Source: Acidobacteriota bacterium (GTDB lineage Bacteria; Acidobacteriota; UBA6911; JACQSX01). From it: a stretch of 64,000 nt of DNA. This document shows, in pieces, positions 11,344 to 52,450 of the stretch. The stretch spans positions 4,540-68,539 of the forward strand of contig DASXTB010000409.1 in the NCBI GenBank assembly GCA_036505615.1. The letters are read 5' to 3'. A model generated the notes under the pieces. It did not search any database. It was not told where the DNA came from and worked only from the letters and a program-made list of their open reading frames with translations. Made by a program: the position numbers and the translations under genes. The number at the start of each line of letters is the position of its first letter. Position 1 is the first letter of the stretch.

Positions 11344-11349
11344 CAATTG

Positions 11350-11505
11350 CGGGTTGTGGATTTCGGATTGCGGAATTAGAGAAATGCGGGTTGTCAGTGG
11401 TCCGTGGTCCGTTGTTTCTTAAGAAACCTCGTTGTTCAACAACTACGAACCACTGACAACGGACAGACTTAAATCCGCAATCCGAAATCCACAATCCGCA
11501 ATAGC
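11350..11505. repeat. Nested palindrome between convergent genes (CGGATTG outer arms, GTCCGTT inner arms)
   Basis: Outer gcgggttgtggatttcggattgcggaatt / aatccgcaatccgaaatccacaatccgcaat. Inner gttgtcagtggtccgtggtccgttg / caactacgaaccactgacaacggac. Probable bidirectional terminator. Confidence 0.6.
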
Positions 11506-11507
11506 GA

Positions 11508-12614
11508 TCAGGTAATAGTCACCAGCACGCGTTCATCCATATATTTTCCGAGATCGCCCCGCAGCGACGGCATCCAGCTAAACACTTTCCTGTAAACGTC
11601 CTGGCTCTCCATGCAGAGATATACGGTGCTGCCGGGACTGCGCCGGCGGATCCACTCGATCATGCGCGCGTACATTTCGACGCGAATCGGTTTGAAGTAC
11701 TGGAACTTGCCATCGGTTCCGCGGATGATTTCTCCGTAGAGGATTTGACTGCGCGGAAAGCGCCAGCGGATCATGTCGCGCTGGTCTTTGTTGAAGCGGA
11801 GCCCGCCTATGCTGAGCCAGGCGATCTCTTGCGGGGTGAATCGGTCAAATAGTGCGTCGACCAGCGCGTGATAATCCGCCTGCCAGTTCTGGTAGTGCAC
11901 CATCGGATCAAAATGGAATCCGAGGCGATAGCCGTGATCGGCGCAGCGCCTCGCCGCTTCGAGTTTTTCTTCCAGAGTCGCCGTCTTCCATTCCTCATGC
12001 GAGGTGACAAAAGGTGTGTTGATCGACCATGAAACCACAGTGTTGCGGTTGGACTCGATTTGCAGGAGGTTTTCAATGTTGTTTGTCTTGGTCTTCAACT
12101 CCAAAATGGCATTTTTGCGGCCGCCGAAAAACGGAACCATCCACTTGGAAATCCCGGTCAGATGGTCCAACCCCAGCGAGTCGGAGAGTTCACCCGTGCC
12201 GACTCGATATACTCCCTGAGGATTCTGCGAAAAAGCGTCATCCAGTTGCTCCAGCAGCTCAGGCACGTTCACGTAAACTCGCATGAAAGGGTTGTTCAGA
12301 TATGCCTGCAGAATGCAGTAGGTGCACTCAAGGTGGCAGTTGGTCGCATAGGTGACGGTGAAGTAATTGCAACTGACATGGCTGGCCGTGCAGCCAGGGC
12401 ACAGTTTAAGGAATTTTCCCTGTTGGCGCGTCAACACCAGCTGTTTTTTACCGCTGGTGAGCGTGGTATCGCTGGCATAAAGTGCTTCCAGCTCTTCCCG
12501 AGAGCGAAAGTAGACCACCGGCACACCAGCGGCCTGCTGCAGCGTGTAGCGTGTAATCGGCTCTTCGACGACAGCCGGATCAACGTAGATTTTTTCGGGC
12601 TTGTATTGTTTCAT
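11508..12614 (-). CDS. Radical SAM protein, spore-photoproduct-lyase (SplB)-like DNA repair family
   Basis: 368 aa. CxxxCxxC cluster (CHLECTYC) in an SplB-like context. Confidence 0.55.
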   Translation of the reverse strand: MKQYKPEKIYVDPAVVEEPITRYTLQQAAGVPVVYFRSREELEALYASDTTLTSGKKQLVLTRQQGKFLKLCPGCTASHVSCNYFTVTYATNCHLECTYCILQAYLNNPFMRVYVNVPELLEQLDDAFSQNPQGVYRVGTGELSDSLGLDHLTGISKWMVPFFGGRKNAILELKTKTNNIENLLQIESNRNTVVSWSINTPFVTSHEEWKTATLEEKLEAARRCADHGYRLGFHFDPMVHYQNWQADYHALVDALFDRFTPQEIAWLSIGGLRFNKDQRDMIRWRFPRSQILYGEIIRGTDGKFQYFKPIRVEMYARMIEWIRRRSPGSTVYLCMESQDVYRKVFSWMPSLRGDLGKYMDERVLVTIT

Positions 12615-13707: not shown

Positions 13708-13726
13708 AGCGTCGATTATAGCGCAG

Positions 13727-14050
13727 TACCCAGTTCGTAGTTGCCAGTTGCCAGTTACCAGTTCCCAGTGGTCTATCTTAGTGCCGGATCGGCAACTGAT
13801 GTCCAGTGCCCAGTGTTCTAGAGCCCAGCGTCCCGTTACCAGTGGCCAGTGGCCAGTTGCCAGTTCCTGGTTTCATCCTCTGGTTACTGGTGGACGATCC
13901 GGCAATAAGATCAACGACTAGGAACTGCCAACTAGCCACTGGCAGCCCGGCGCTGGGCTCTGGAACGCTGGGTACTGGACATCAGTGGCCAATCCGGCAC
14001 TAAGATGGGCCACTGGGAACTGGTAACTGGCAACTGGCAACTGGACACTG
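13727..14050. repeat. Inverted duplication of a ~105-bp CCAGTKG heptamer-array element in a divergent promoter region
   Basis: 13727-13831 is ~90% identical to the reverse complement of 13945-14050. The 113-bp centre is itself partly symmetrical. Confidence 0.7.
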
Positions 14051-14151
14051 GGTACTGAGGTTTTAAAGTTGAAAAAAAGATCCAGAGACGCCAAGATCGA
14101 ATCTTGAAAATTTTGAGTCGCAAATTAACGGATTCCCCAGTTGTGTAATTA

Positions 14152-16455: not shown

Positions 16456-16471
16456 TCGAACTGAAACTGAA

Positions 16472-16660
16472 GGTCGAAAGTCGAAAGTCGAAAGTCGAGG
16501 TCGAAAGTCGAGGTCGAAAGTCGGACGTCGAAAGTCGAATGCTATCGACTCGCTCACCTTTTGAATGGCAAACCTGAAGACCGGCTGACTTGCGACCTGC
16601 GACTTTCGATCTTCGACTTTCAACCTTCGACTTTCGACAGGACCTGCGACTTGCGACCTT
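16472..16660. repeat. GTCGAAA heptamer array (16472-16540) and its reverse-complement array (16589-16660)
   Basis: (ggtcgaaa)n ... (tttcgac)n arms flank a 48-nt loop, ending 15 nt before the permease start codon. Confidence 0.7.
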
Positions 16661-18566: not shown

Positions 18567-18903
18567 AAGCCAGCTATCAGCCATCAGTCATCGGTCATCG
18601 GTCATCGGTAGTCAGTCATTGGTAGTCCTCTCATCGGTCATTAGCTTCCGTGAGCAACTGGACCAGGGATCTGATTTATTTTCAAAAATTGCTTCGCAAA
18701 TTTTCAGCTGGAGGAGTTATGTAAAGCGGAGACTTGGCAAATTAGACCAGGAATTGCGTATGTTTCTCCGCTTGATCAACGGCTACGTCCGATCGATAGG
18801 AGACCGATGACTGATGACCGATGACCGATGACTGATAACCGATGACTGATGGCTGATGGCCGATGACCAATGACCGATTAACGATGACTGATGACCGACG
18901 ACG
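18567..18903. repeat. CATCGGT heptamer array (18567-18644) and inverted ACCGATG array (18806-18903) flanking a 160-bp unique core
   Basis: Direct read of tandem catcggt/catcagt units on the left and accgatg/actgatg units on the right. The core has SD-ATG-TAA at 18710-18724. Confidence 0.7.
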
Positions 18904-19900
18904 CAGAATCGGTCTGCAGGCGTTCCAGTATGGAAATGGTTCTGGACCCGCGGTTACAGACAAAAACGTAGGCGTTGTCGCGGCTCACATGCACTGCAGC
19001 TGGTTTGACGCCGACTGCAACTTGCTCCAGCTCGGTAAATGACTCCAGGTCGAAGATTGCAACTTTGCCTTCCAGACCGTTTGTCACGTACAGATACTTG
19101 CCGTCGCCGCTAATCTCCATTGCAGTCGGGCCACTTCCGGTCGAGATGTGTTTGGTTTCTTTCTCTTCGTCCAGGGAAATCCGCACTACACTGTTGCGAG
19201 GTCCAAGCGCGAACAACCAGCGCTCCTGAGGATCGACAACCAGCGGTGTGTCCCTTGCCGTAACAACATTGAACGTACGGATCACCTTTTTTAGCGTCAT
19301 ATCAACGACGGCTATCTGTTGCATACCCACCGCAACGTAAGCTTGACCTCTCTGCGTCGCTACGGCCAAGCCCGCGATTGGAGAGTTAAACTCTACTTCC
19401 TTGATGGGACGGTATGTAAAGGGGCTGAGAAAGGCGAGCTTCTGATGACGGGCCAGAAGCACCAAGACCTCACGCTGGTATTGTCCGAAAAAGGTCGGTC
19501 CCCCGCCCAGTGGGATGCTGCGGGTAAAGCGGTTTCCATAAAGATCGATCAAGGAGATTTTGCGGCCGCTCCAGTGTCCGATCAGAGCAAGCTTGTCTCC
19601 CGGCAACACGTGAATAAACAGCAGTGAACCATCCAGCCGAAGACGGCTTGTCACCCTGCCCAACCTCAAGTCGTAAAATAGTACTTGATCATCTCCTGTA
19701 GTAATAACCAACTTCCGGTTATCGGGCGTCACCCAGCTGGCAATCGGAACTGATTCCAACTTTACTGTCGTGAAAAGACGATGAGTCTGCTGCGCGTTGG
19801 CAATGGACCAAAGTGCGAAGCTGGCAAGAAAGAATGAGGCTGGACCGTTGAATTTCGGTTTTCTGCGCAAGTCTTTCCCCTGGCAATCGTCGTCAGTCAT
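18878..19900 (-). CDS. Secreted YVTN-family beta-propeller protein
   Basis: Start taken at MTDDD...FFLASFALWSIANA (signal peptide). Repeats contain YVTNGLEGKVAIFDL and YVFVCNRGSRTISILE. Confidence 0.6.
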   Translation of the reverse strand: MTDDDCQGKDLRRKPKFNGPASFFLASFALWSIANAQQTHRLFTTVKLESVPIASWVTPDNRKLVITTGDDQVLFYDLRLGRVTSRLRLDGSLLFIHVLPGDKLALIGHWSGRKISLIDLYGNRFTRSIPLGGGPTFFGQYQREVLVLLARHQKLAFLSPFTYRPIKEVEFNSPIAGLAVATQRGQAYVAVGMQQIAVVDMTLKKVIRTFNVVTARDTPLVVDPQERWLFALGPRNSVVRISLDEEKETKHISTGSGPTAMEISGDGKYLYVTNGLEGKVAIFDLESFTELEQVAVGVKPAAVHVSRDNAYVFVCNRGSRTISILERLQTDSASSVISHR

Positions 19901-19929
19901 TCGGCATTGGCCGGATAAAAGCCGATCAC

Positions 19930-20025
19930 GACCACGTTCACGAGCAGGTCCACGCCTACGCGGACGAAAATACACAATCGCTCACGATTCGACTGGTCGT
20001 AGTCGTGGACGTTGACGTGTTAGCG
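19930..20025. repeat. Dispersed ~100-bp CACGNN-hexamer palindromic element, copy 1 (copy 2 inverted at 26397-26513)
   Basis: gtccacgcctacgcggacgaaaatacacaatcgctcacgattcgactggtc here matches the reverse complement of 26440-26490 with 2-3 differences. Confidence 0.7.
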
Positions 20026-20087
20026 GGCCGGCAAATCTGGTTTTTTTACCACATTTTCCCGGCGTATCGCCCCCGCACAGGTCCTCC

Positions 20088-20377
20088 AAAACCCGAAGGG
20101 TTTACAGAGTAAAGCCGGCGGCAAAGCCCGCGCCTTTTGCGGGCGACGCCGCCGGTTGGCCATCCATCCAAGACGATCCGCCCTGAAAGCGCCTAAGAAT
20201 TTTTCGCAAATTTGAAACCAAGCCCATTTAGTTCTTCGACCCGCTATATCTGTGGCGCTCAGGCTCTGCGACGCCTTCAGCGTCAGATAGTTTATGGAAA
20301 CGGTTAACCGGCGGCGACGCCCCGCAAAAACCGCGGGCTCTGCCGCCGGCTATACTCTCTAAACCCTTCGGGTTTTA
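20088..20377. repeat. Pair of ~75-bp inverted repeats flanking a 140-bp core (MITE-like or structured element)
   Basis: 20088-20160 (aaaacccgaagggtttacagagtaaagccggcggcaaagcccgcgccttttgcgggcgacgccgccggtt) is ~90% identical to the reverse complement of 20301-20377. Each arm contains three short hairpins. Confidence 0.65.
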
Positions 20378-20416
20378 CCGGCGGCCTCTTACATCCTTAG
20401 CTGCGGTTTGCGAACG

Positions 20417-21592
20417 TCACCGATAGAAAACTACCCGATCGCCACTCTCGCACTTTCGAAATCGGTCTATCCATTCAACGCACTGCTCCGCGTTGGCCGC
20501 CTGACGCACATCTATATGATTCGTGCCGTCCAGGTTTTGGCGAATAAAAGATTGCAGGACATGCGTTTCCCACCGCTCCTCCAAAGTTAGGTCCGAGAAA
20601 TACACTCTCCCGATGTCAGCAATAAGTTTCTTTCGTTGGTCGCTTCGACCGCTGTACCGAAAATCGCCGCCAAATTTGCCGCCTCGCATGAAAAACAGTC
20701 GCACTGCGTTCTTCTTCTCTGATGGAAGCACCAGAATTAAGTCGGACGCGCGGTAATACTCGGCTTGGCGCTCCCGCACTTCGAGCTGGAAGTTGACTTC
20801 AGGTCGCCACCTTTCGATGGCGCGGGCTTCTTCCAGAAATGCCTCCAATTCGCTGCCCAGAGACTGAAAATCCAATGAGTAGAGCCGCTGATGGATGCGC
20901 TGCAATTTTTCATCCCACAATTCACAAGAAACGAAATAGCTGCGAATGCGCCTGTTCAGGTTCTTACTTTTTCCTACGTAGAAGACCCTTCCCCTCTGGT
21001 CGCTCATCCAGTAAATTCCCGGGGTCTCGGGAATTGCCGCCAGCCATTCGGCCGAGAACCCGAAGCGACTGAAATCAATCTCACTGCGGCCGTCAACCAG
21101 CGTTTGCACTCGCTTCAAACCGCAGTTGTCGTCCAAAAACTGTACCGCATCACCCAGGAGGGCAGCGATTTGGTCCGTATTGGCTGGTTCCCGGAAGGTG
21201 CTACCCAGGCGCGCGGCAACTTCGGCCAGAGTTACTCGCCGCGCTGCTTTGCTGCGATTTGGAAACGCCGCGCGCCACAGTTCCTGAAACTCCCAGGCGC
21301 GGCAGTCCGCATCAGGCAGCCAGCCGGCTAACCGGCTCAGCAGATCGAGTGCAACACGCAGATTGGGCCAGCATATGACGCAAGACTGCAGACAACGATG
21401 AAACTGGACCGGGCCGTCCGACGCGCCGGGCTGCCCGCCAGGAGCGCTGCGCCTATCAGGGTTGGAGACGAGCGAAAATGGAGAGTCATCCCAGTCCTGT
21501 GCGGAAAGACACAAGCCTTCGGGAACCACCAACCGGCATGCAGCATGGCAGACGGTTCCTCCAATCCAGAGTCGCGCCAGCAGTTCTTCCAT
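20417..21592 (-). CDS. GIY-YIG nuclease-domain protein with uncharacterised N- and C-terminal regions
   Basis: Central GIYWMSDQRGRVFYVGKSKNLNRRIRSY (GIY...YVG...R motif). Start taken at the internal MEELLARL (21592) to avoid overlapping the divergent transporter gene. The ORF could extend to 21673. Confidence 0.5.
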   Translation of the reverse strand: MEELLARLWIGGTVCHAACRLVVPEGLCLSAQDWDDSPFSLVSNPDRRSAPGGQPGASDGPVQFHRCLQSCVICWPNLRVALDLLSRLAGWLPDADCRAWEFQELWRAAFPNRSKAARRVTLAEVAARLGSTFREPANTDQIAALLGDAVQFLDDNCGLKRVQTLVDGRSEIDFSRFGFSAEWLAAIPETPGIYWMSDQRGRVFYVGKSKNLNRRIRSYFVSCELWDEKLQRIHQRLYSLDFQSLGSELEAFLEEARAIERWRPEVNFQLEVRERQAEYYRASDLILVLPSEKKNAVRLFFMRGGKFGGDFRYSGRSDQRKKLIADIGRVYFSDLTLEERWETHVLQSFIRQNLDGTNHIDVRQAANAEQCVEWIDRFRKCESGDRVVFYR

Positions 21593-21635
21593 AAATTGCC
21601 GTGTTCCAGGTATTTGTCGGCGCGTGGCCACAACG

Positions 21636-22622
21636 ATGCTAAAATTCGCGGTTTGTTTTATGAAAGAATCCACCGATTACCCTGATTTCTCGAATGAGAC
21701 AACTAATGCAGCTTCCGCGCTCCGGCGTAGGCGGCAACACTGGTTGGCTGACGGATGTTTTCTGCTTATCACATTCATCTGGGGCTTTTCCTTTGTAGTC
21801 GTCAAAAATGCTCTGCGCGAAGTGCCGATGTTCTATTTCAATGCGCTCCGCTTCGGCGTTGCTACTGTGATTCTGATTCCTTTTACATTCAGGCAATGGA
21901 GAGCCTGGAAGCCATCTATTCTTCCTGGATCGATTCTGGCAATGTTTCTTTATGTTGGGTTTGCATTCCAGACGGCGGGACTGAAGTACACCACGCCTTC
22001 TAAGTCAGCCTTCATTACTTCTTCCGCAGCCATCGCAGTCCCCATCTTTCTTTTTCTCTTCTTCAGGAAGAAGTCCGATCTTTCCGCGCTTCTAGGAGTT
22101 CTGGTCGCGTTCGCCGGTCTTTACCTTTTGAGTGTTCCCTCAAACAATTTTAATCTCAACCATGGAGATACTTTGACCGCAATATGCGCCGCGGCCTGGT
22201 CGTTTCATATCATCTTCACGGGCCGTTTTTCTCCGTTTTATCCGTTGGCCGCGCTCGCCACTTTTCAGATTGTCTTGGCCGGAATTGGTTTTTGGCTGAC
22301 GGCGCTCGGCTCGAGTCAAATCGGGCCAGTACCTAGAACCGCCGTGCCGGCAATACTTTACGGTGGCATACTGGCCACCGCTCTCTGCTTCGGGCTGCAG
22401 CTCTGGGCTCAGCGCCACACGTCGCCCACACGCGCCGGCCTGCTGCTGACAACCGAGCCGCTTTTTGCATCTGCCACCTCCTACTTCTGGACGGGAGAAC
22501 GTCTCACCGGTCGCGAGGCCATCGGAGGAGCGCTGATCCTGGTCGCCGTCATTCTGGCCGAAGTTGGATATCAATGGCGCTTCCAGCATGGACGCTTCGC
22601 CGGCCAGGCAATCGATCTATGA
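21636..22622 (+). CDS. EamA/DMT-family transporter
   Basis: About 10 TM helices with duplicated EamA-like halves. The start could be 21636 or 21660. Confidence 0.7.
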   Translation: MLKFAVCFMKESTDYPDFSNETTNAASALRRRRQHWLADGCFLLITFIWGFSFVVVKNALREVPMFYFNALRFGVATVILIPFTFRQWRAWKPSILPGSILAMFLYVGFAFQTAGLKYTTPSKSAFITSSAAIAVPIFLFLFFRKKSDLSALLGVLVAFAGLYLLSVPSNNFNLNHGDTLTAICAAAWSFHIIFTGRFSPFYPLAALATFQIVLAGIGFWLTALGSSQIGPVPRTAVPAILYGGILATALCFGLQLWAQRHTSPTRAGLLLTTEPLFASATSYFWTGERLTGREAIGGALILVAVILAEVGYQWRFQHGRFAGQAIDL

Positions 22623-22717
22623 TAAAATTGTTTTGTTCCATACTGGTGGCCGCACTTTTTTTAGACAACGTTTTCGCGGCCCCACGCGTATAAATTATAA
22701 ATGGAAAATCTAAGCTT

Positions 22718-24352
22718 TTGGAGGAATCGATGAATACGAAGACTTGGGGCGATATCATTCGGGAGCGCCGGGGCTTGGCCTTTTTGATGCTCCTGCTTAC
22801 CCTGGCAATCGGTATCGCTATCGGAACTATTATCCAGCACGGCGCCAGCGCAAAGACGTTGCGCGACGTCCAGCAATTGAAGATTTCGGGAGAAGGCCAG
22901 CCTCTGGCGCTGGACAACCCCGTTTCTTTGCAAGAAGGTTTTTCCCGGGTGGCGCAAACCGTCGGCCCGGCTGTTGTCAATATCAGCACCAAACAGGTGA
23001 TCAAAGGCTCGACGCAGCGCAGGCGAAGTCCCAGGGGTGAAGCCCCTGACTTCTTTGGCGACGATCTATTTGACCGTTTCTTCGGTGCCATCCCCGACAT
23101 GGACCGGGTCCAACACGGCCTCGGTTCGGGCGTGATTGTAGACAGTAGCGGCTACATTCTCACCAACCATCATGTCATTGCCAAAGTCGATAAGATCACA
23201 GTGAAGCTGAAGGATAGTGAAGAATTCAGCGCCCGTGTGATCGGGGACGATCCGGATGCGGACTTGGCAATACTGAAGATTGATGCCAAAAAAACACTCC
23301 CCTTTGCCAAGGTGGGAGACGCCGACAAGTTGAAGGTCGGAGATTGGGTGCTTGCCATCGGAAGTCCCTTCGCCCTTGATCAAACAGTCACGGCGGGGAT
23401 CATTAGCGCCACTCACCGAACCATAGAGAGCGGAGGGGTGAATCCCTTTGGCGACTATCTCCAGACGGACGCGGCAATTAATCCCGGTAACAGCGGAGGG
23501 CCGCTGGTTAACATGCGCGGCGAAGTTGTCGGCATCAACTCTTTCATCACCAGCGGCAGCGGCGGCAACCTGGGCGTTGGTTTTGCCATCCCCAGCACTG
23601 TCTTTGTAAACAGTTACAACCAGCTTGTTACCAGAGGAAAGATGGAGCGCGGCTGGCTGGGAGTCACTATGAACGTGGCGCCCTTCACTCCGGAAATGGC
23701 AAAGTTCTTTGGACTTTCCGCCCGCCCTGATGGCGGATACGGAGTTCTGATCACTCAACTGGTAGATGAGCAGGGAAAGCCATCCAAGACGGCTGGCCCG
23801 GCTTCCAAGGCTGGAATCAAGGAAGAAGACGTGATTGTCGAGTTTGATGGAAAACCGATCAAGAATTCCTTCGACCTCAGGTCTGCTGTCGCCAACACGC
23901 CTCCCGGCAAGACCGTTCAGGTTAAGGTAATCCGCTTCGGTCAGACAAAAACCTTCAACGTAAAATTGGAAGAGCGCGTTCTGAGACGGTCAGATCAGGA
24001 AGAGTCCATTTCGACCGATGAGCGTCAGGAACTGCCGCGCGACAAGGAGATTGGGCTGCAGATACGCGACCTGACTCCCTCTCAGGCGCAGCAGCTTAAT
24101 ATTGAAGATGGCGGCGGGGCGCTAATTGAGGACGTAAGGCCTGGAAGTCTAGCTGATGATGCCGGTCTTGCAGCCAACTTTGCGATCGTGAAAGCCAATG
24201 GCAAACCGATTAAGTCGGCTCTTCAATTGAAAAACCTACTGAGTGGTTTGAGATCGGGTGAACCGGTAGTATTGAAAGTGGTTACTCCTCCTCCGCCGGG
24301 GCAGAGAGATGGCGCTCCGGGAGTTTTCTACACTTCTTTTGTGAAGCCTTAA
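22718..24352 (+). CDS. htrA: Periplasmic serine endoprotease DegP/HtrA (trypsin domain plus two PDZ)
   Basis: 544 aa. TNHHV (His), D in GDDPDADLAILKI, GNSGGPLVN (Ser). Two PDZ-like regions. SD GGAGG before the ATG. Confidence 0.9.
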   Translation: MEESMNTKTWGDIIRERRGLAFLMLLLTLAIGIAIGTIIQHGASAKTLRDVQQLKISGEGQPLALDNPVSLQEGFSRVAQTVGPAVVNISTKQVIKGSTQRRRSPRGEAPDFFGDDLFDRFFGAIPDMDRVQHGLGSGVIVDSSGYILTNHHVIAKVDKITVKLKDSEEFSARVIGDDPDADLAILKIDAKKTLPFAKVGDADKLKVGDWVLAIGSPFALDQTVTAGIISATHRTIESGGVNPFGDYLQTDAAINPGNSGGPLVNMRGEVVGINSFITSGSGGNLGVGFAIPSTVFVNSYNQLVTRGKMERGWLGVTMNVAPFTPEMAKFFGLSARPDGGYGVLITQLVDEQGKPSKTAGPASKAGIKEEDVIVEFDGKPIKNSFDLRSAVANTPPGKTVQVKVIRFGQTKTFNVKLEERVLRRSDQEESISTDERQELPRDKEIGLQIRDLTPSQAQQLNIEDGGGALIEDVRPGSLADDAGLAANFAIVKANGKPIKSALQLKNLLSGLRSGEPVVLKVVTPPPPGQRDGAPGVFYTSFVKP

Positions 24353-24381
24353 AAGACTTTCACACCAGGAGCGGATTAAAA

Positions 24382-24405
24382 GGGCGGGATCCCCCGCCCT
24401 TTTTT
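24382..24405 (+). terminator. Rho-independent terminator after htrA
   Basis: gggcggg-atcc-cccgccc followed by tttttt. Confidence 0.65.
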
Positions 24406-24534
24406 AGATTCTCCCGCGCTCGCTCACGCTCGCGGTACCGATTCTTCCTCACGTTCCAGGCCGAGCGGCGTCCCGTGCAAAAGAAATGCCATGGCGGGTC
24501 TCTGATCCTGTGAAACGGCGTGACAGAGGTCTGT

Positions 24535-24700
24535 GGCGCAAGATCCTCGGATAACTTGGAGAGTGTCTCAAGACAATGAACCACGGGGGACACTGGGAAC
24601 ACGGGGAGTTTAATGATTCCTTTAGCAATAAGATTTAGTGCTAATTTCGAAAGCCGTTGTGGTCCCCGTGTTCCCAGTGTCCCCCGTGGTTCATTGTCTT
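24535..24700. repeat. Giant near-perfect palindrome (~45-bp stem, ~55-nt loop)
   Basis: tgtctcaagacaatgaaccacgggggacactgggaacacgggga ... tccccgtgttcccagtgtcccccgtggttcattgtcttgagaca. Confidence 0.7.
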
Positions 24701-24781
24701 GAGACAGCCTCCTTGCCTCTTCCTCGATGACCCCTTAGACTGGTCGTTTCCAAGTAGTTTCTTGTTTCTGACTGAGAATCG

Positions 24782-26284
24782 ATGACCAGAGTACGTGCAT
24801 TTAAAAACTTCATCGATGGGGAATGGATTGCCTGTCGTTCCGGTCAAACCTTCGAAAACCGCAACCCGGCTGACCAGGACGATCTTCTGGGCCTGTTTCC
24901 GGATTCCTCAGCCGAAGACATCAACGACGCCGTCGAGGCGGCTGCTCAAGCTTACAGAAAGTGGCGGCTCTACCCCGCCCCCAAGCGCGCTGAGATTCTG
25001 TTCCGGGCGGCGGAAATTCTCGTCAAAAGGAAGGAAGAGTTCGCCCACGATATGACTCGCGAGATGGGGAAAATACTGAACGAAACTCGGGGCGACGTTC
25101 AGGAAGCCATCGATATGAGTTATTTCATCGCTGGCGAGGGGCGGCGCATGCAGGGCCATACTGTGCCTTCCGAACTGCCCAACAAATTCGCCATGTCGGT
25201 GCGCATGCCTCTGGGTGTCTGCGGGTTGATCACTCCGTGGAATTTCCCGATGGCAATCCCTTCCTGGAAAATGATTCCCGCCCTGGTATGCGGCAACACA
25301 GTCGTGATCAAACCTGCTGAGGACACTCCGCTGTCCGCTGTGAATTTTTGCCAGGCTCTTGCCGACGCCGGTATGCCCAAGGGTGTGGTAAACCTGGTTA
25401 CCGGGCTTGGCCCTTCAGCAGGAGCTCCATTAGTGTGTCATCCCGCCACAGCGATGATTTCTTTTACCGGATCCACTGAGGTTGGACGCTCGGTGGCCGA
25501 GGCGTGCGCCCCTCATAACAAACCCCATCACCTGGAGATGGGCGGCAAGAACATCATTCTGATTATGGAAGATGCCGATATTGATTTGGCGGTGGAAGGC
25601 GCCCTCTGGGGAGGATTTGGCACCACCGGTCAGCGCTGCACGGCGGCCAGCAGGCTCGCCGTCCACAAGATAGTGTACAAGGAATTCACCAGGAAATTTG
25701 CGGATCGCGCCAGAAAGCTTCGCGTCGGCGACGGCCTGGATGAAGAGGTGGAGATGGGTCCGCTTATCAACGCTGCCCAACTGAAGACCGTGCAAGACTA
25801 CGTTCGAGTAGGAAGAGACGAGGGCGCACGATTAATTTGCGGCGGCAGTGTGCTGCAAAAGGGACGTTTCAAGAAGGGCTTCTTTCATGAGGCCACCATC
25901 TTCGGGGACGCCGACCCGAAAATGCGCATTGCCCGCGAAGAGATTTTTGGACCTGTCGTGACGGTCTTGCCCATCAACAGCCTGGAGGAAGCTATCGAGA
26001 TAGGAAATTCGGTCGAGTATGGCCTTTCTGCCTCTATTTACACGCAGGATGTGACTAAGGCTTTCATCGCCATGAGAGATATGTTCACTGGCATTTTCTA
26101 CGTGAACGCTTCGACCATCGGCGCTGAAGTACATCTTCCATTCGGTGGAACGAAGGCCACGGGTAATGGGCATAGAGAAGCGGGTCACGCGGCGCTGGAC
26201 GTATTCTCCGAATGGAAATCTATTTATGTGGATTTCAGCGGGAAGCTGCAGAAAGCCCAAATCGATCAGATAGGGGAAATTTAG
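24782..26284 (+). CDS. NAD(P)-dependent aldehyde dehydrogenase
   Basis: 500 aa. [17 protein letters not shown] (catalytic Glu), [10 protein letters not shown] (catalytic Cys). Confidence 0.9.
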
Positions 26285-26396
26285 AGCGTGTAGCAGAGAA
26301 ATTTGTAGCAATTAAATAGGAGGCGGATTACACAGAAACAACTACTATTTGGTGAAATCTTGTGCTCTCGGCAAAATTTGGCGCTGAACAGCCGAC

Positions 26397-26513
26397 CACG
26401 TTCACGTTCACGAGCACGTCAACGTCCACGACTACGACCAATCGAATCGTGAGCGATTGTGTATTTTTCGTCCGCGTAGGCGTGGACGTGTTCGTGAACG
26501 TGAACGTGGTCGT
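26397..26513. repeat. CACGNN-hexamer palindromic element, copy 2 (inverted relative to 19930-20025)
   Basis: cgaccacgttcacgttcacgagcacgtcaacgtccacgactacgacc ... ggcgtggacgtgttcgtgaacgtgaacgtggtcg. The core matches copy 1. Confidence 0.7.
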
Positions 26514-26635
26514 TATCGGCTTTTATTGGTTTGCTGCTTTACCGCGCTAGGTCCCTTGGTGGTGAAGCTTTTTTCAGGCGACAAAGGACACGAAGGATAC
26601 AAAGGCGCACCAAGGGTCCGCCCCGGTTGCGAGCC

Positions 26636-29095
26636 CTACTTCAGTTTTTTCTTCAAAAGTTTCTCCTGGCGTTTTTGCTCGTCGATGATCTCCTTGCGGG
26701 TGCGTTCCTCGATTCGCTTGTCCTGGCTCTGTTCCTTATCATTGACGAAATCATAGGCCCGCTTAAGGGCGCGACGGAACTCGCTGCTTACCGAGTCCGA
26801 CTGCGGCACCGAGCCGACCACATGAGGGGTAATGAGAATAATCAATTCGCTGCGGCGATGCTTCTTTTCTGTCGTTCCGAACAGCGCCCCCAGAATCGGC
26901 AAGTCACCGAGCAAGGGAACCCGGCTTCGGTCCAGCGTGTCGCTGTCGCTGATGATGCCTCCGATGGCAATGGTATGGCCATCCCGAACGACCAGCGAGG
27001 TCTCTACGTAATTGCGATTAATGGTTGGTGTCAGAGTCGATCCGACGGCGGAGCTGACTTCAATTGAGAGATCCATGGTTACCATTCCGGAAGCGCTGAT
27101 ACGCGGATTGAGCACCAAGGTGGTACCGGTGGGCCGAAATTGGATCTGATTCAGAAACGCGGCTGGATTGCCGCTGATCGCCGGATCTCCGAACGAAGAG
27201 GTCGTGACCGGAACATCCGCGCCGATATTGATGTTGGCCTGCTGCCCGTCGAGCGCCAGCAGGCGGGGCGCTTCCAGAATCCGGACGTTGGTCTTGGTGC
27301 GCAGCGCGTTCAAAGTCGCCTCGATTTCCCGCGATTCGCCGATGATAAATCGAGTTGCCGCGTTGAGCGCGCCCGAAGGAGTCTTTTTGTCACCCACCGA
27401 CGCGGTCGTAGCAAGCGCCTGCTGCCGCTGCTCCAGGAAGGCGGCAATCCCGAAGGAGAGCTCATCGCGCAACTCGACGGAGTAAACCTTGGCTTCAATC
27501 AGGACCTGCCGGGGCAGCACGTCCAGTTGCTTGATGGTGCGCTCGATGTACTGATAGTCGGCTTCAGTGGACTGGATGATCAGGGAATTGTTGAATTCAT
27601 TGACGATGATTTTTACATTTCCGCCCAAGAGTGAACCGCCGCCGGCCTGAGAGCGCTGCGAGATGGGGCGCCCCTCCAGATTCGGCGCCAGCGAGGACGT
27701 CAGTCCTCGCCGCGCTCCCATGCTCTCCTGGGGGCGGATCGAGGACGGCCGCTGCTGCTGCGGGTATTGCTGCTGTTGGAGCTGGCCCTCGGCGGTCGCG
27801 GCCGACGGCAGCCCTGAACCGTCGCTGTACAACTGGGACAGAATGTCGGCGATGTTTCCCGCGGTGGAGTTTTCGACCTGATAGACGAACGTTTGCACGT
27901 TCATTCCGCTCGAGGGCGAGTCAAGCTTTTCCAGCCACTTGTGTACTTCGTCCAGAACATGCTGCGAATGCGCGATCACCAGAATTGAATTCAGCCGCTC
28001 GATGGGGATTAAATTTACACCGCTGCTGTCACTTCCGGCTCCAAATACGGCATTCAAATCCTTGGCCACATCGGCGGCTCGGTTGTAGCGCACCGGAATA
28101 AGCTCGGTGGTGTTGATATCGAACAGTCTTGAATCGAGGAGCTCGATGATTTTCTTGACCTTCTCAATGTTCGGCTTGAAGTCGGTGACGATCAGAATGT
28201 TCTTGGGATCATAGGAAAGGAGCGTCGCTCCTCCGGACATAAACTGCTGGATGATCGGATTCATTTCCGACGTGGGGATGAACTCAAGCGGAATGATGAC
28301 GGTCACCAATCCCTTTTCGTCCCCCAGGCTTGTAGGCCCCTGTACGGAGAGAACGCGTGGTTCTGCGGGAGCGGAAGCTGCGCTGCTCGGCGGCGGCGTT
28401 GTTCCCGAAGCAGGCTTTGGGGGAGGGGTGACAACCTCCGTCTTCTTCTTCAAATCGAGCAGGATTTCGTGGGGAGTCTTTATTCCCTCGGCAATGGGCA
28501 CGATCAGATAAATGTCGCCCGACTTAACGACGGCGGCGTTGTTCAGTTTCAGGATCAGTTCCAGCGTTGAAAAGAGATCCTCACGTTTGATGGGCTTTGA
28601 TGTCTGGATGTTGACCGTTCCATTGACCCCCGGATCAACCATGTAGCTGTAGCCCAGTTCTTTCATAATGACGTCGATGACTGTCGTCAGGGGGGCGTTG
28701 GAGAAGAGGAGGTTGACGCCTGCGGCCGAAGGCTGGACCTGGGTGATCACCGGACCGGTTGGCCTTGGCTGCTGCTGCTGTGGTTGCTGCGGCACGGACT
28801 GTTGAACCTGGCCCGGTGGCGGAAGCTGTACCGGCGCCCGCGAAGATTTAATACCGCCGATGATCCCTTCCAGGCCCTCGGTATTGATGGGCGTCTGCCG
28901 AGGGTCAGCAGCCGGCACGATTACGGTCCGGTTCTGGCGCGTCGTGGTTTTCTGTTGCTGGGCCAGCATTTCGGGAAGCGCCTCCGCTTGCGCCGCCGGA
29001 GCCAGGAGAAATGCGGCTGCAGCCACCAGCATCAAGGCGGATGTCTTCGCAGCATTCCAGGTTTTGGATCTCGAAGAAAGATTGTCCAGGATCAC
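26636..29095 (-). CDS. Secretin (GspD/PilQ family) with a long Pro/Gln-rich N-terminal region
   Basis: 819 aa. Signal peptide. C-terminal secretin domain (NVRILEAPRLLALDGQQANINIGADVPV...VVRDGHTIAIGGIISD...VPLLGDLPILGALFG...SELIILITPHVV). Confidence 0.85.
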   Translation of the reverse strand: MILDNLSSRSKTWNAAKTSALMLVAAAAFLLAPAAQAEALPEMLAQQQKTTTRQNRTVIVPAADPRQTPINTEGLEGIIGGIKSSRAPVQLPPPGQVQQSVPQQPQQQQPRPTGPVITQVQPSAAGVNLLFSNAPLTTVIDVIMKELGYSYMVDPGVNGTVNIQTSKPIKREDLFSTLELILKLNNAAVVKSGDIYLIVPIAEGIKTPHEILLDLKKKTEVVTPPPKPASGTTPPPSSAASAPAEPRVLSVQGPTSLGDEKGLVTVIIPLEFIPTSEMNPIIQQFMSGGATLLSYDPKNILIVTDFKPNIEKVKKIIELLDSRLFDINTTELIPVRYNRAADVAKDLNAVFGAGSDSSGVNLIPIERLNSILVIAHSQHVLDEVHKWLEKLDSPSSGMNVQTFVYQVENSTAGNIADILSQLYSDGSGLPSAATAEGQLQQQQYPQQQRPSSIRPQESMGARRGLTSSLAPNLEGRPISQRSQAGGGSLLGGNVKIIVNEFNNSLIIQSTEADYQYIERTIKQLDVLPRQVLIEAKVYSVELRDELSFGIAAFLEQRQQALATTASVGDKKTPSGALNAATRFIIGESREIEATLNALRTKTNVRILEAPRLLALDGQQANINIGADVPVTTSSFGDPAISGNPAAFLNQIQFRPTGTTLVLNPRISASGMVTMDLSIEVSSAVGSTLTPTINRNYVETSLVVRDGHTIAIGGIISDSDTLDRSRVPLLGDLPILGALFGTTEKKHRRSELIILITPHVVGSVPQSDSVSSEFRRALKRAYDFVNDKEQSQDKRIEERTRKEIIDEQKRQEKLLKKKLK

Positions 29096-34002: not shown

Positions 34003-34772
34003 TGGAAATTCCTGAACGGGTTGTTGGGCTGAGCTATGGGCGGGCGAGGCGCGTTGGGGGGCGCGCTGAAAGCACCGGGAGTGTTCAAGGCCGGCTGCTC
34101 GCGCAAGCCCACCGGTTTCAGGCAAACCAGGCGATACAGCTTTCCATTTTTGTCATTCTTGTAGATCACATCCACACGGACGCTCAACAGTTTCATGGGA
34201 AATTGGGTGCGTCCGTCCCATCGGGCTTGTTCTGGAATCTCAAAGTCTTGAACCATCGCCTCCCACCGGAAATTGTCGTCCAGATCATCGTGTCTAGTTA
34301 TCGGGCCCTTGATGGTCTCATCGGAGAGAATTTCATTCATGACGTTCTCCGCGTAATTCATCGCCTGGCCGGCCAGGTCCATCTTGCGCACATTCTTCAG
34401 CGCTCCTGAAAAGAGTTGCAGAGCTACAGTGATGCCTATGCTGACGATCGCCAGCGCCACGACCACTTCCAGTAAGCTGAAACCCCTCCTGGAATGCCGA
34501 ATGCCGAGTGCGGAATGCGGAATGCTTTCTGAATGCGGAATGTCTTTTGAACGCGGAAGGCGAAATGCGGAATGCGGAATGCTCCTTGAATGCGGAATGG
34601 GGATTGCGGAATGCGGAATGTCTCCTGATTGGGGAACGTCCAACGCGGAACAGAGAGTGAAAGACGGCAGCCGATTAACAGTTTGAAATCCCCATTCCGC
34701 ACTCTGCATTCCGCATTCCGCATTCGATACCCCGCATTCCGCATTCGAAATTCCGCATTCGAAATTCCGCAT
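33999..34772 (-). CDS. GspI-like pseudopilin; 5' end undefined because the ORF runs into a GCGGAAT repeat array
   Basis: Prepilin motif SRRGFSLLEVVVALAIVSIGITVAL at ORF residues 95-120. No ATG/GTG lies near the motif; the nearest in-frame candidates are ATT (34502) or TTG. The upstream 90 codons are translated repeat. Confidence 0.5.
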   Translation of the reverse strand: MRNFECGISNAECGVSNAECGMQSAEWGFQTVNRLPSFTLCSALDVPQSGDIPHSAIPIPHSRSIPHSAFRLPRSKDIPHSESIPHSALGIRHSRRGFSLLEVVVALAIVSIGITVALQLFSGALKNVRKMDLAGQAMNYAENVMNEILSDETIKGPITRHDDLDDNFRWEAMVQDFEIPEQARWDGRTQFPMKLLSVRVDVIYKNDKNGKLYRLVCLKPVGLREQPALNTPGAFSAPPNAPRPPIAQPNNPFRNFQ

Positions 34773-34800: not shown

Positions 34801-35428
34801 TAGCCGATCCGGTAATCACGTCGGTTTTCACAATCACCTTCCGGCCGCGGTCGTTTTCCAATACCAACTCCGCATCATCGGCTCGGCCGTTCGGGTAAAA
34901 GCTGATGTAGACGGCCGGATCCCGACTTTCCTCTCCTTCAAACTTTACGGAACTCACTTTGATCTCGTCGCTAAGCCCAAAGTCGTGGACCTTGTCGTGA
35001 TAGGCGTCCGCCAGAAAGATGATGTTGCGGTCCCTTTGGACTGCGATCCGATAAACCCGCTGCTCCCCGACGGCCAAAGTCCGGGCGGTGCGGCACAATG
35101 TAACGAAGTCTCGCCCTTTGGCCTCCAGTCTCATGCCCGCAAGGCCCGTGCGCATCGACGGCATCACAACCGCCATGGCGACGGCTATTATCACCAACAC
35201 GATCACGACCTCGATGAGGGTGAAACCTCTTCGGGATTGCGGAATGCGGAATGCGGAATGGCTCAATTGCGGAATGCGGATTGCGGACTGCGGATTACTC
35301 GATTTCGGATTTCGGATTGCGGATTGCGAATTGCGGATAGTACGTTCCAATCTGTCAATCCGCAATCCGCAATCCGCAATCCGAAATTGGATAACCTGAT
35401 GCTCCAAAATACAGCCATCAAAGTGCAC
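34772..35428 (-). CDS. GspH-like pseudopilin; 5' end undefined (repeat array upstream)
   Basis: Prepilin motif QSRRGFTLIEVVIVLVIIAVAMAVV. No nearby ATG; a TTG at 35266 would give a 14-aa leader. Confidence 0.5.
   Translation of the reverse strand: MHFDGCILEHQVIQFRIADCGLRIDRLERTIRNSQSAIRNPKSSNPQSAIRIPQLSHSAFRIPQSRRGFTLIEVVIVLVIIAVAMAVVMPSMRTGLAGMRLEAKGRDFVTLCRTARTLAVGEQRVYRIAVQRDRNIIFLADAYHDKVHDFGLSDEIKVSSVKFEGEESRDPAVYISFYPNGRADDAELVLENDRGRKVIVKTDVITGSAKLTIPKERG
35235..35400. repeat. CGGAATG/CGGATTG arrays with an inverted CAATCCG partner
   Basis: cgggattgcggaatgcggaatgcggaatgg...gcggattgcggattgcgaattgcgg / caatccgcaatccgcaatccgcaatccg. Confidence 0.65.
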
Positions 35429-35865: not shown

Positions 35866-35958
35866 AAGACCTCCGATCCGTATGGATCCCGCTGGGACTA
35901 ATTCCGCATTCCGCAATCCGCATTCCGCATTTGAGCGAATCCGCATTCCGCAATCGCA

Positions 35959-37746: not shown

Positions 37747-37917
37747 TTTTTAATTTCGGATTGCGGATTGCGGATTTCGGATTGCAGATTTCGGATTGCG
37801 GATTGGGAATTGACAGCTAAGCGAGTTGCTCACAATGCGCAAACCCGCCATCCGCGAATCCCCAATCCGCAATCCGAAATCAGCAGTCCGAAATCCGAAA
37901 TCCGCAATCCGCATTCC
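37747..37917. repeat. CGGATTG heptamer arrays in inverted orientation between gspF and gspE
   Basis: tttcggattgcggattgcggatttcggattgcagatttcggattgcggattgg ... aatccgcaatccgaaatcagcagtccgaaatccgaaatccgcaatccgc. Confidence 0.7.
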
Positions 37918-39642
37918 TCACACTTCCTGCGTTACTCTTAACACTTCCGAAACCGTGGTCAGTCCCGCTCGCACTTTGTTCCAGCCGTCCTCGCGCAATC
38001 CCAGCATTCCATTTTGAACCGCCAGCTTGCGCAGCGTGTTGCTGTCGGCATCGGTGATGGTCAGATGGCGAATGTCATCATCCATCAGCATCAGTTCGAA
38101 AATGCCGATGCGTCCCATATAACCGGTCCCGGCGCACTCCTTGCAACCGCCGCCCTGATGCGTGATGTTAGACTCGCCGTTTCGGTTCATCCCGATTTCC
38201 TTCAGGAATGCGGGGTCATTTTCCACTTTAACCTTGCAATGACTGCAAATCACCCGCACCAGCCGCTGGGCCAGAATCCCCAGAATGGATGAAGCCAGCA
38301 AGTAATCCTCCGCGCCCATATCTACCAGCCGCGCGATGGCGCTGGGCGCGTCGTTAGTGTGCAGTGTGCTAAAAACCAGATGGCCCGTCAGCGCCGCCCG
38401 GATGGCAATCTCGGCCGTTTCCAGATCGCGGATCTCTCCCACCATAATCACGTCCGGATCCTGACGGACGATAGACCGCAGGCCCGCCGCAAATGTCAGG
38501 CCAATCTGCGGATTCACATGAATCTGATTGATCCCGTTGATCTGGTATTCGATGGGGTCTTCGATGGTGATGATCTTCTTGTCCGGCAGATTTATCTTGG
38601 TGAGCGCGCCATAGAGAGTAGTGGTCTTTCCCGATCCGGTAGGCCCGGTCACCAGAATAATCCCGTGCGGCCGCGTGATCAGGCCCTCAAACATGGCGAA
38701 GGTATCGGTGGCGAATCCGAGCTTATTGAGATCATAGATCTGCGTGTTGCTCTTATCCAGGATGCGCATCACTACGCTTTCGCCGTACAAGGTGGGGAGC
38801 GTGGAGACTCGAAGATCGATTTCGCGTCCCATCACTTTCATTTTGATACGCCCGTCCTGAGGCATACGGCGCTCGGCGATGTTTAATTTCGCCATGATCT
38901 TGATGCGCGAAATTACCGCCGATTTGAGCTTCTTGGGAGGCGATTCCACGTCGTGCAGAATGCCATCGATGCGATAACGCACCTTCAGGTCTTTCTCGAA
39001 AGGCTCGATGTGGATGTCGCTGGCTCGGCTCTCAATGGCTTTGCTGATCAGCAGGTTGACCAGGCGAATGACGGGAGCTTCGGACGCAAGATCCTTAAGG
39101 TGCTCGATGTCGTCGATCTCTTCGGCCAGCGCCTCCATGTCGCCTTCTTCGAATCCTTCCACGATGCGGCCAAGCGTGGTGCTCTGATTGCCGTAGAATT
39201 TTTCGATCAGGTCCTGAACTTCGGTATCGGTAGCCAACGTCACCTGGAGCTTCTGGTGGCCGGTGTACAAGCGGATCGAGTCCAGCGTAGCATAGTCAAG
39301 TGGATCGTTCATGGCCACCACCAGCGTGCCGTCCTCGAGCAGATTGATGGGGACAAACTTATTTTGGCGCATGAACTTGGTGCTGAACGTGTTTTCCAAA
39401 ATGGGCACTTTGGGCCAGTCTTCTTCCCTCATCACGGGGACGCCGAGATAGGGGCCGAGCGCCTGGATCAGGTCCTTGTCGGATAATGCGCCCAAATCGA
39501 CCAGGATCTTGCCGATCTTGTCGTGCGATGTCTTTTGCACGTTCAGAGCGGTTTTCACCTCGTCTTCCGACACCAAGCCCCGATCCATCAGTTCCTGGCC
39601 GAATAATTTTCTTTGTCTCAGTTCAGCGATTCGGATTGCCAT
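37918..39642 (-). CDS. gspE: Type II secretion / type IV pilus assembly ATPase GspE/PilB
   Basis: 574 aa. Walker A (GPTGSGKTTTLY), Asp/His boxes, and a C-terminal tetracysteine (CSHC...CKEC). Confidence 0.9.
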   Translation of the reverse strand: MAIRIAELRQRKLFGQELMDRGLVSEDEVKTALNVQKTSHDKIGKILVDLGALSDKDLIQALGPYLGVPVMREEDWPKVPILENTFSTKFMRQNKFVPINLLEDGTLVVAMNDPLDYATLDSIRLYTGHQKLQVTLATDTEVQDLIEKFYGNQSTTLGRIVEGFEEGDMEALAEEIDDIEHLKDLASEAPVIRLVNLLISKAIESRASDIHIEPFEKDLKVRYRIDGILHDVESPPKKLKSAVISRIKIMAKLNIAERRMPQDGRIKMKVMGREIDLRVSTLPTLYGESVVMRILDKSNTQIYDLNKLGFATDTFAMFEGLITRPHGIILVTGPTGSGKTTTLYGALTKINLPDKKIITIEDPIEYQINGINQIHVNPQIGLTFAAGLRSIVRQDPDVIMVGEIRDLETAEIAIRAALTGHLVFSTLHTNDAPSAIARLVDMGAEDYLLASSILGILAQRLVRVICSHCKVKVENDPAFLKEIGMNRNGESNITHQGGGCKECAGTGYMGRIGIFELMLMDDDIRHLTITDADSNTLRKLAVQNGMLGLREDGWNKVRAGLTTVSEVLRVTQEV

Positions 39643-47552: not shown

Positions 47553-47700
47553 TAAATGGGACACGGATGAACACGGAATACACGGATGAAGCCCCCGTCG
47601 CGGCCGGTCAAGAGACCGGTTCAGTATGTGGTTGGTCGGCCGCGACGGGGGCTTCATCCGTGTATTCCGTGTTCATCCGTGTCCTGATAAAACGGCAAGA
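47553..47700. repeat. Giant perfect palindrome (48-bp stem, 30-nt loop), CACGGAT family
   Basis: ggacacggatgaacacggaatacacggatgaagcccccgtcgcggccg ... cggccgcgacgggggcttcatccgtgtattccgtgttcatccgtgtcc. Confidence 0.75.
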
Positions 47701-52039: not shown

Positions 52040-52450
52040 GAGGCAGGAAGCAGGAGGCAGGAAGCAAACGGCAGGAAGCAGGAAGCAGGAAGCAGGAGGC
52101 AGGAGCCAGGAGGCAGGAGGCAGGAGGCAGACGGCAGAAGGCGGAGGCAGAAAGCGGAAGGCCGAAGGCGGAAAGCGGAAGGCAGTAGACAGAAAGCGGA
52201 AGGCGGAAAGTGGAATGCAGCAGGCGATGGCTTACAAGGCGTCATCTGTCATTCGTCATTTGTTACCCACAACGACAGACGACGATTTGATACGTGAACT
52301 GTCTTCTGCCTTCCGCTTTCTGCCTGCTGCTTTCTGCCTGCTGCTTTCTGCCTTCTGCTTTCTGCCTCCTGCTTTCTGCCTTCCGCCTTCCGCTTTCTGC
52401 CTACAGCCTTCCGCTTTCTGCCTACAGCCTTCCGCTTTCCGCCTTCCGCC
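52031..52450. repeat. GCAGGAA heptamer array (52031-52230) and inverted TTCCTGC array (52300-52450) between argR and argF
   Basis: ggaggcaggaagcaggaggcaggaagc... versus ...ctgccttccgctttctgcctgctgctttctgcc. Confidence 0.75.

Follow-up and report, generated by a model that had tools for sequence, protein, structure and literature searches.

The two matching hairpins found in the window, by which we mean the whole 64-kb stretch of Acidobacteriota DNA analyzed here, belong to a dispersed hairpin family, one as a truncated member and the other as a complete one. The family hairpin is an imperfect palindrome of about 130 nt with arms built from arrays of NACGNN hexamers, and the arms find their homologs around a protein gene in longer cassettes at other loci. 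We consider it probable that the window element is a gene-less miniature, i.e., a nonautonomous form of a stem-loop cassette resembling the intervening sequences (IVSs) of 23S rRNA.

The two window copies, referred to as A and B, match over about 105 nt with about 95% identity, in opposite orientations (19915-20019, plus strand, and 26415-26526, minus strand; E 1.7e-34). The blastn alignment comprises a segment of 88 nt at 95.5% identity (19933-20019 versus 26502-26415, E 1.7e-34) and a second segment of 28 nt at 96% through the left arm and flank (19915-19942 versus 26526-26499), shifted by a single 6-nt unit. Probes of 19 and 21 nt taken from the core matched only copies A and B in the window, with 0.00 to 0.02 matches expected from shuffled sequences. 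The arms consist of repeated hexamers, CACGNN on one side and NNCGTG on the other (12 matches versus 0.49 expected). The inverted two-copy repeat proposed by the first-pass annotation of this DNA is therefore real, as are the hexamer arms that it described and the 51-nt core differing between copies by one A indel and one substitution (C/T); the alignment places the start of this core at 19948 instead of 19945. The limits given for the element did not stand. Copy A occupies 19915-20019, the stem of copy B 26391-26520 and the conserved unit around it 26341-26566, so that the reported unit was too small, and both the conserved flank modules and the relationship to gene cassettes had been missed. 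These are the two copies known within the source genome. The features of the window, with the left (LM) and right (RM) flank modules of copy B, are as follows:

19915-20019, plus strand: copy A, truncated; located by blastn and nhmmer (score 121.2).
26391-26520, minus strand: copy B, the complete hairpin of 130 nt, read and folded; family-profile nhmmer score 148.8.
26521-26566, minus strand: LM of copy B, TTCACCACCAAGGGACCTAGCGCGGTAAAGCAGCAAACCAATAAAA; kept in loci L001, L003, L004, L005 and L008.
26341-26390, minus strand: RM of copy B, TGTTCAGCGCCAAATTTTGCCGAGAGCACAAGATTTCACCAAATAGTAGT; 92-100% identity to the post-hairpin sequence in L001, L002, L003 and L008.

Copy B occupies the spacer between two convergent genes, for an aldehyde dehydrogenase (24782-26284, plus strand) and a GspD secretin (26636-29095, minus strand), and is faced by the stops of both. 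Its inverted-repeat arms (26393-26442 and 26463-26512) fold with predicted energies of -79.8 kcal/mol on the plus strand (z -9.1 against shuffles) and -73 kcal/mol on the minus strand (z -7.6). The left arm has the form GCCGA-TAACGA-(CACGNN)x6-GACG and the right arm (NNCGTG)n-GTCGGC; the 30-nt loop between them, AAAAATACACAATCGCTCACGATTCGATTG (26468-26439), carries a small tip hairpin (AATCG/CGATT). LM ends in an A-tract, which in the plus-strand reading becomes GGCTTTTATTGG immediately after the stem, and it also occurs upstream of other NACGNN hairpins. A diverged counterpart of RM, beginning with GGCTGTT or GGCCTTAAT, is found in the cassettes of L003 and L018. In the family alignment, LM (...TTCACCAC.GAGGCCTAGCGCGGCGGAGCCGCAAC.CAATAAAA) and RM (TGTTCAGCGCCAAATTTTGTCGAAAGCGCAAGATTTCACCGAATAGTAAT) flank most copies, copy B included. 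Because both modules are conserved in copies elsewhere, we take 26341-26566 as the composite unit around copy B.

Copy A consists of ATAAAAGCCGAT, a left arm (19927-19966) with one hexamer fewer than that of copy B, a loop (19967-19995) and a right arm of 24 nt (19996-20019) that has lost a further stretch of about 24 nt. LM and RM are both missing, and the remaining sequence folds no better than its shuffles (z -1.6 and -0.8). It is located between a GIY-YIG gene (20417-21673, minus strand), about 400 nt downstream of the stop at 20417, and a gene for a YncE-like beta-propeller protein, 15 nt upstream of the probable ATG (19900-19898, minus strand). Since homology to orthologs ends at 19795, the ORF 18878-19975, which overlaps copy A, is a spurious 5' extension.

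It is hardly credible that this repeat reflects a segmental duplication, a coding sequence for a His-X peptide, or a known RNA gene. The (CAC-GNN)n arms can be read as H-x-H-x, and ORF finders call short ORFs across them, but a 1-nt difference in the A-run of the loop shifts the frame between copies and stop codons precede the arms; the coding interpretation was rejected on account of this frame shift. Similarity ends at the element, and the flanking genes and proteins are unrelated, which disposes of the larger duplication that the first-pass annotation had raised as the alternative. No Rfam family was matched at its gathering score, and the long-hairpin matches in a permissive search of 19800-26700 were all to generic miRNA-precursor models below threshold.

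The family extends to other genomes. An exact-match scan with the loop 20-mer ACACAATCGCTCACGATTCG across one genome per species (185,579 species, in a set that does not contain the source genome) recovered six contigs, all of them from a single Acidobacteriota MAG, SMAG_U4449 (GCA_036006905.1). The same 20-mer retrieved three true copies and one chance match (L009) from soil metagenomes, and viral contigs contained neither this probe nor an arm 22-mer. Together these searches yielded at least nine further copies (at least six in the MAG and three in soil metagenomes), which are 88-98% identical to the window copies; collection with an exact loop 20-mer biases these counts and identities and makes the loop invariant by construction. 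Diverged members devoid of the loop 20-mer were sought with nhmmer over 180 kb of related DNA, which returned only arm-level matches to other NACGNN hairpins. All further copies are intergenic and reside at unrelated loci, next to unrelated housekeeping genes (e.g., a sigma-54 activator, recJ, an lptC-like gene, pgpA, and a desaturase gene), and no transposase gene was found adjoining any family copy.

Within the family, arm length differs by whole hexamers, sometimes with matched changes on both arms; most copies have two CACGTT/AACGTG units per side and L008 has one. Both L006 and copy A are represented by the hairpin alone. The L006 copy is placed at the exact center of a larger palindrome with GGATTGA-type heptamer outer arms (L006 6450-6720), the two forming one continuous nested hairpin. 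Two loci from different sources, L001 (7140-7185) and L007 (1165-1195), have in common a variant in which a small CCCGnCCnGCGGGG hairpin takes the place of one right-arm hexamer, a sign that the family is divided into sub-lineages. Four of the six MAG loci contain a second element with NACGNN arms, 0.2 to 6 kb from the family copy (L001 6915-7077, L002 7932-7990, L003 1867-2414, and L005 328-457), pointing either to many copies in that genome or to clustering at a local scale.

Comparison of insertion sites with relatives supports a dynamic behavior of these hairpins. Contig L011 of SMAG_U4449 is syntenic with the window from 18.9 to 26.3 kb, and its aldehyde dehydrogenase is 84% identical to that of the window at the protein level. 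Orthologous coding DNA aligns at 67-76% nucleotide identity, and no intergenic DNA aligns. Both L011 spacers orthologous to the window sites (1021-1196 and 11501-11704, corresponding to window positions ~19900-20417 and ~26284-26640) are free of the element and contain other long hairpins of unrelated sequence, with arms of 58 nt at 98% complementarity and 87 nt at 80%. In a third relative (L013), the spacer after the aldehyde dehydrogenase gene is just 2 nt. Hairpin turnover between related species is thus fast, and the absence of the element from orthologous sites is as expected for something gained and lost. Such absence, along with the dispersal of the family over unrelated intergenic loci, bears out the earlier proposal that at least some of the hairpin elements propagate. 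Synteny with the relatives stops exactly at copy B (window 26284-26640): in L011 and L013, the next gene after that for the aldehyde dehydrogenase is alanine-dehydrogenase-like and has the same orientation; in the window, copy B and the convergent secretin/T2SS operon come next.

The near-identity of copies A and B, in turn, had been attributed to recent copying, a reading that we do not maintain. Copy B is closer to L006 (97.7% over 132 nt) than to copy A (95.5%), and conservation of the family exceeds that of orthologous genes, so identity cannot be read as recent copying within this genome. Sequence constraint or transfer between lineages accounts for it at least as well.

The evidence that assigns the window element to a cassette family comes from loci in which arms homologous to its own enclose, within about 600 nt, a gene for a four-helix-bundle protein (PF05635/TIGR02436, S23p/Avd-like). 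The cassette that serves as the reference is

L003, 1867-2414: CACGNN arms around a ribosome-binding site and an ORF of 113 codons.

The product of this ORF matches the PF05635 '23S rRNA-intervening sequence protein' (E 7.6e-20) and TIGR02436 'four helix bundle protein' (E 6.9e-18) models, as well as the pentameric Xanthomonas protein of PDB entry 2GSC. The cassette is predicted to fold as a whole with its arms paired (z -5.9). The combination of gene and arms recurs in five independent contexts (L003, L018, L019/L020, L021, and L022), the last four being from other assemblies and at other loci, with genes at 67-92% amino acid identity, arms of the same NACGNN type and a shared AAAAGCCG stem base. 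NACGNN arms with loops of other sizes are also present in the loci that carry the family copies. The left arm of the L021 cassette starts with AAAAGCCGATCACGACCACG, identical to the window element. LM and the left arm of copy B, aligned to three cassettes, score 69-70 against 16-17 +/- 2.5 for shuffles (z ~20), and the right arms of copy B and the cassettes align as well.

Partially deleted derivatives occur alongside the full cassettes. An internal-deletion form at L007 (821-1045) has kept just the two ends of the ORF, its first and last codons, with 90% and 82% identity to L003, and L022 contains a derivative from which the 5' part of the gene has been deleted. A local HMM built from 120 homologs detected no four-helix-bundle gene, either in the window or elsewhere among the collected loci. 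Since arms and left flank are homologous and gene-fragment derivatives exist, the window element is placed in the cassette family, most likely as a member that became gene-less by deletion. The 30-nt loop would then be what remains after loss of the gene; each half is similar to one of the L003 UTR borders, in the place where this would be predicted (GAAAAA..ACAATCGC for the 5' UTR border, ACGAT.C.A.TG.GTCGTA following the stop), a weak similarity of marginal significance (p ~0.01 and 0.004). The reverse direction, with the gene inserted into or captured by an older hairpin, could apply to this subfamily.

The cassettes exhibit further features. At L022 (1030-1729), they are arranged head to tail, the right arm leading through a T-tract into the next left arm, and in the third unit nothing but the 3' end of the gene is left. 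At L003 1940-1980, and also in L018 and L007, a conserved small hairpin (CUCCUGGC...GCCAGGAGG) pairs the Shine-Dalgarno sequence of the four-helix-bundle gene, a hint that the cassette gene is controlled at translation. The L021 cassette is bracketed (70-82 and 596-608) by a perfect 13-nt direct repeat, AATTCGGTGACAG, which occurs within the arm of a neighboring hairpin as well; it may be a target duplication, of which it is a single case.

How the copies spread has to be considered separately from their ancestry. They would reach new intergenic sites at the DNA level, through recombination or a factor acting in trans, and frequently beside or inside other hairpins; this adjacency and nesting suggest that existing hairpins are targeted or that recombination takes place at them. 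The protein of the parent cassette is not a known transposase or recombinase. Target-site duplications, a further sign of mobility that the first-pass annotation had in view, were found around neither copy A nor copy B, and flanking direct repeats are likewise lacking at L002, L003, and L006, a test limited by the fuzzy, mosaic ends of the element. No consistent target-site duplication emerged.

One class to be compared is that of the classic MITEs, deletion derivatives of insertion sequences that are moved by the corresponding DDE transposase through terminal inverted repeats. An origin of this kind we judge quite improbable. The element is small (130 nt), noncoding and without a conserved reading frame, it has long inverted termini (paired arms of ~50 nt) and multiple dispersed copies with unrelated neighbors (2 + 6 + 3), longer relatives with internal deletions exist, and the direct repeat around the L021 cassette would fit. 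Nonetheless, the only protein encoded by the longer relatives is the PF05635 four-helix bundle, no fixed-length target duplication or transposase-encoding relative with the same ends appeared among the collected loci, direct repeats are absent from the five sites named above, and almost all of the element is inverted repeat, the length of which varies by hexamers. Among MITE-like families, ERIC/IRU elements are 127-bp imperfect palindromes of enterobacteria and Correia elements are neisserial; the latter are RNase III targets, can modulate the stability of neighboring mRNAs, and have TA target duplications and defined 26-bp termini. The window element resembles both in its size class (~100-150 bp) and as an imperfect palindrome in transcribed intergenic DNA, but has no sequence relationship to them. 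To our knowledge, neither family has a four-helix-bundle parent.

REP/REPIN and TIRtron/TIRYT sequences offer another precedent. Tyrosine transposases specific to Acidobacteria and flanked by long inverted repeats have been reported, one family of such repeats being present in K. versatilis (PMC3733652). On this model, the hairpin would be recognized as single-stranded DNA and copied by a domesticated Y1 (HUH) tyrosine transposase (RAYT/TIRYT) with a single gene elsewhere in the genome, and the four-helix-bundle gene would be an unrelated passenger. Like those repeats, the window element is extragenic, dispersed, nonautonomous, devoid of target duplications, often clustered or nested, conserved in related species and often downstream of genes (PMC3733652); cross-species conservation is what a fit to a cognate enzyme would produce, and the L006 copy sits at the precise center of another palindrome. 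On the other hand, it consists of one 130-nt hairpin whose arms are tandem hexamers, is much longer than a REP of 20-40 nt and distinct from a REP doublet, and it has no terminal GTAG/CGTC tag, GTAG occurring only inside the stem, where it is paired with CTAC. Moreover, no Y1 gene adjoins any copy within ~180 kb of related DNA, and what the same arms bracket in five contexts is a four-helix-bundle gene and not a Y1 transposase gene. We therefore regard this route as unlikely.

The closest known architecture is that of the ORF-bearing IVSs in the 23S rRNA of Leptospira, Coxiella, Xanthomonas, and Brucella, in which an inverted-repeat stem encloses a PF05635 (S23p) ORF (PMC4990558). Versions with a decaying ORF or none at all exist, the stem is cut by RNase III, the Coxiella IVS contains short tandem repeats, and the origin and mobility of these sequences remain unresolved (PMC4990558). 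The inverted-repeat stem, the S23p ORF in sister cassettes, ORF decay and short tandem repeats are all common to the two. However, the elements described here sit between protein-coding genes and not in helix 9, 25, or 45 of 23S rRNA (there is no rRNA in the window), and for this reason they do not belong to the rRNA IVSs. They also differ in having arms made wholly of NACGNN units, additional conserved flank modules, many copies per genome and, in the window, copies with no ORF. A second relative of the cassette protein is Avd, the nucleic acid-binding partner of the reverse transcriptase in diversity-generating retroelements, which belongs to the same PF05635-like four-helix-bundle group (PMC10053308), consistent with the PDB 2GSC match. 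In contrast to Avd systems, no reverse transcriptase or template/variable repeats were found near any cassette, and the window copies have no protein. Our searches of the open-access literature turned up no account of hairpin cassettes that are extragenic and carry a four-helix-bundle gene, nor of acidobacterial hairpins with tandem-repeat arms.

At the RNA level, the best-supported function predicted for the element is that of a transcription terminator, a 3'-end protector or an RNase III site. If transcribed, it would form a long double-stranded stem with a U-tract on one side and could act in any of these roles, as the stems of rRNA IVSs do as RNase III substrates. In copy B, the plus-strand stem is followed by TTTTATT, 107 nt past the aldehyde dehydrogenase stop, and a terminator-like site was flagged at 26508-26521 (plus strand); in copy A, which is downstream of the GIY-YIG gene, TTTTAT comes after the stem on the minus strand. 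The A-tract 5' of the left arm is kept in all copies and all cassettes, L006, L007, and L010 have a T-tract on the other side too, and wherever an upstream gene reads into the A-tract side (4/4 cases), a TTTTAT-type tract follows the stem. This arrangement of stem and U-tract downstream of a gene is that of an intrinsic terminator, with a stem far longer than typical ones. In its predicted fold, the ~50-bp stem of copy B contains more than 20 contiguous base pairs and would suit RNase III. Orientation relative to neighboring genes is mixed. None of 32 base pairs shows compensatory changes among 11 copies, so selection on RNA structure is not demonstrated, a result that is uninformative given how uniform the family is.

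These properties also bear on the possibility that the hairpins are not mobile at all, being host terminators or mRNA-stabilizing structures kept similar by selection and gene conversion, with copies arising by recombination instead of transposition. The stem and U-tract downstream of genes are in line with it, long hairpins are present in many intergenic regions, both in the window and in its relatives, and family copies cluster with other hairpins in a mosaic of modules. Yet termination needs neither a conserved 30-nt loop nor flank modules, orthologous sites of the MAG hold entirely different hairpins, and copy A, truncated and adjacent to a start codon, lacks a fold better than chance. We hold this explanation to be improbable and favor descent of the window element from the IVS-like cassettes.

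The window harbors other long intergenic hairpins, at 11346-11502, 13724-14057, 16465-16660, 18571-18860, 20088-20376, 24558-24712, 34491-34740, 35242-35394, 35903-35955, 37753-37920, 47559-47684, and 52041-52452. Their arms, of up to 141 nt, are built from tandem 6- to 7-nt units (e.g., of CGGATTG, GTCGAAA, CATCGGT, or GGAAGGC type) and enclose loops of 20 to ~180 nt; none has sequence in common with the CACGNN family. The hairpin at 18571-18860, with (CATCGGT)n heptamer arms, has a 179-nt loop containing GGAGGAG, ATG, and an immediate TAA, and it looks like a decayed small gene. Examined as a further decayed cassette, it gave no Pfam match, significant HMM score, or protein homolog. Between 34400 and 36000, short hairpins with CGGAATG/CGGATTG repeats separate consecutive pseudopilin (GspG-like) genes of a type II secretion operon and produce spurious N-terminal ORF extensions.

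A broader and rather doubtful proposal would unite hexamer-armed hairpins and four-helix-bundle cassettes in a self-propagating class of 'extragenic IVS', with the rRNA IVSs as its rRNA-resident subset. The repeated stem would be the target of the S23p/Avd-like protein, whether for mobility, maintenance, or processing, and the other window hairpins would be miniatures of sister cassettes.

Dispersed palindromic repeats are common in bacteria, and the repeat alone is ordinary. What the analysis adds is the tie between a gene-less hairpin repeat and cassettes encoding an IVS protein. This lineage offers many extragenic cassettes, graded deletion derivatives, and gene-less miniatures within ordinary intergenic DNA, i.e., material with which the stem-loop as a propagating unit and its recognition by the protein can be tested. 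It also provides a lead on why the intergenic regions of this genome are packed with long tandem-repeat-armed hairpins that differ between related species.
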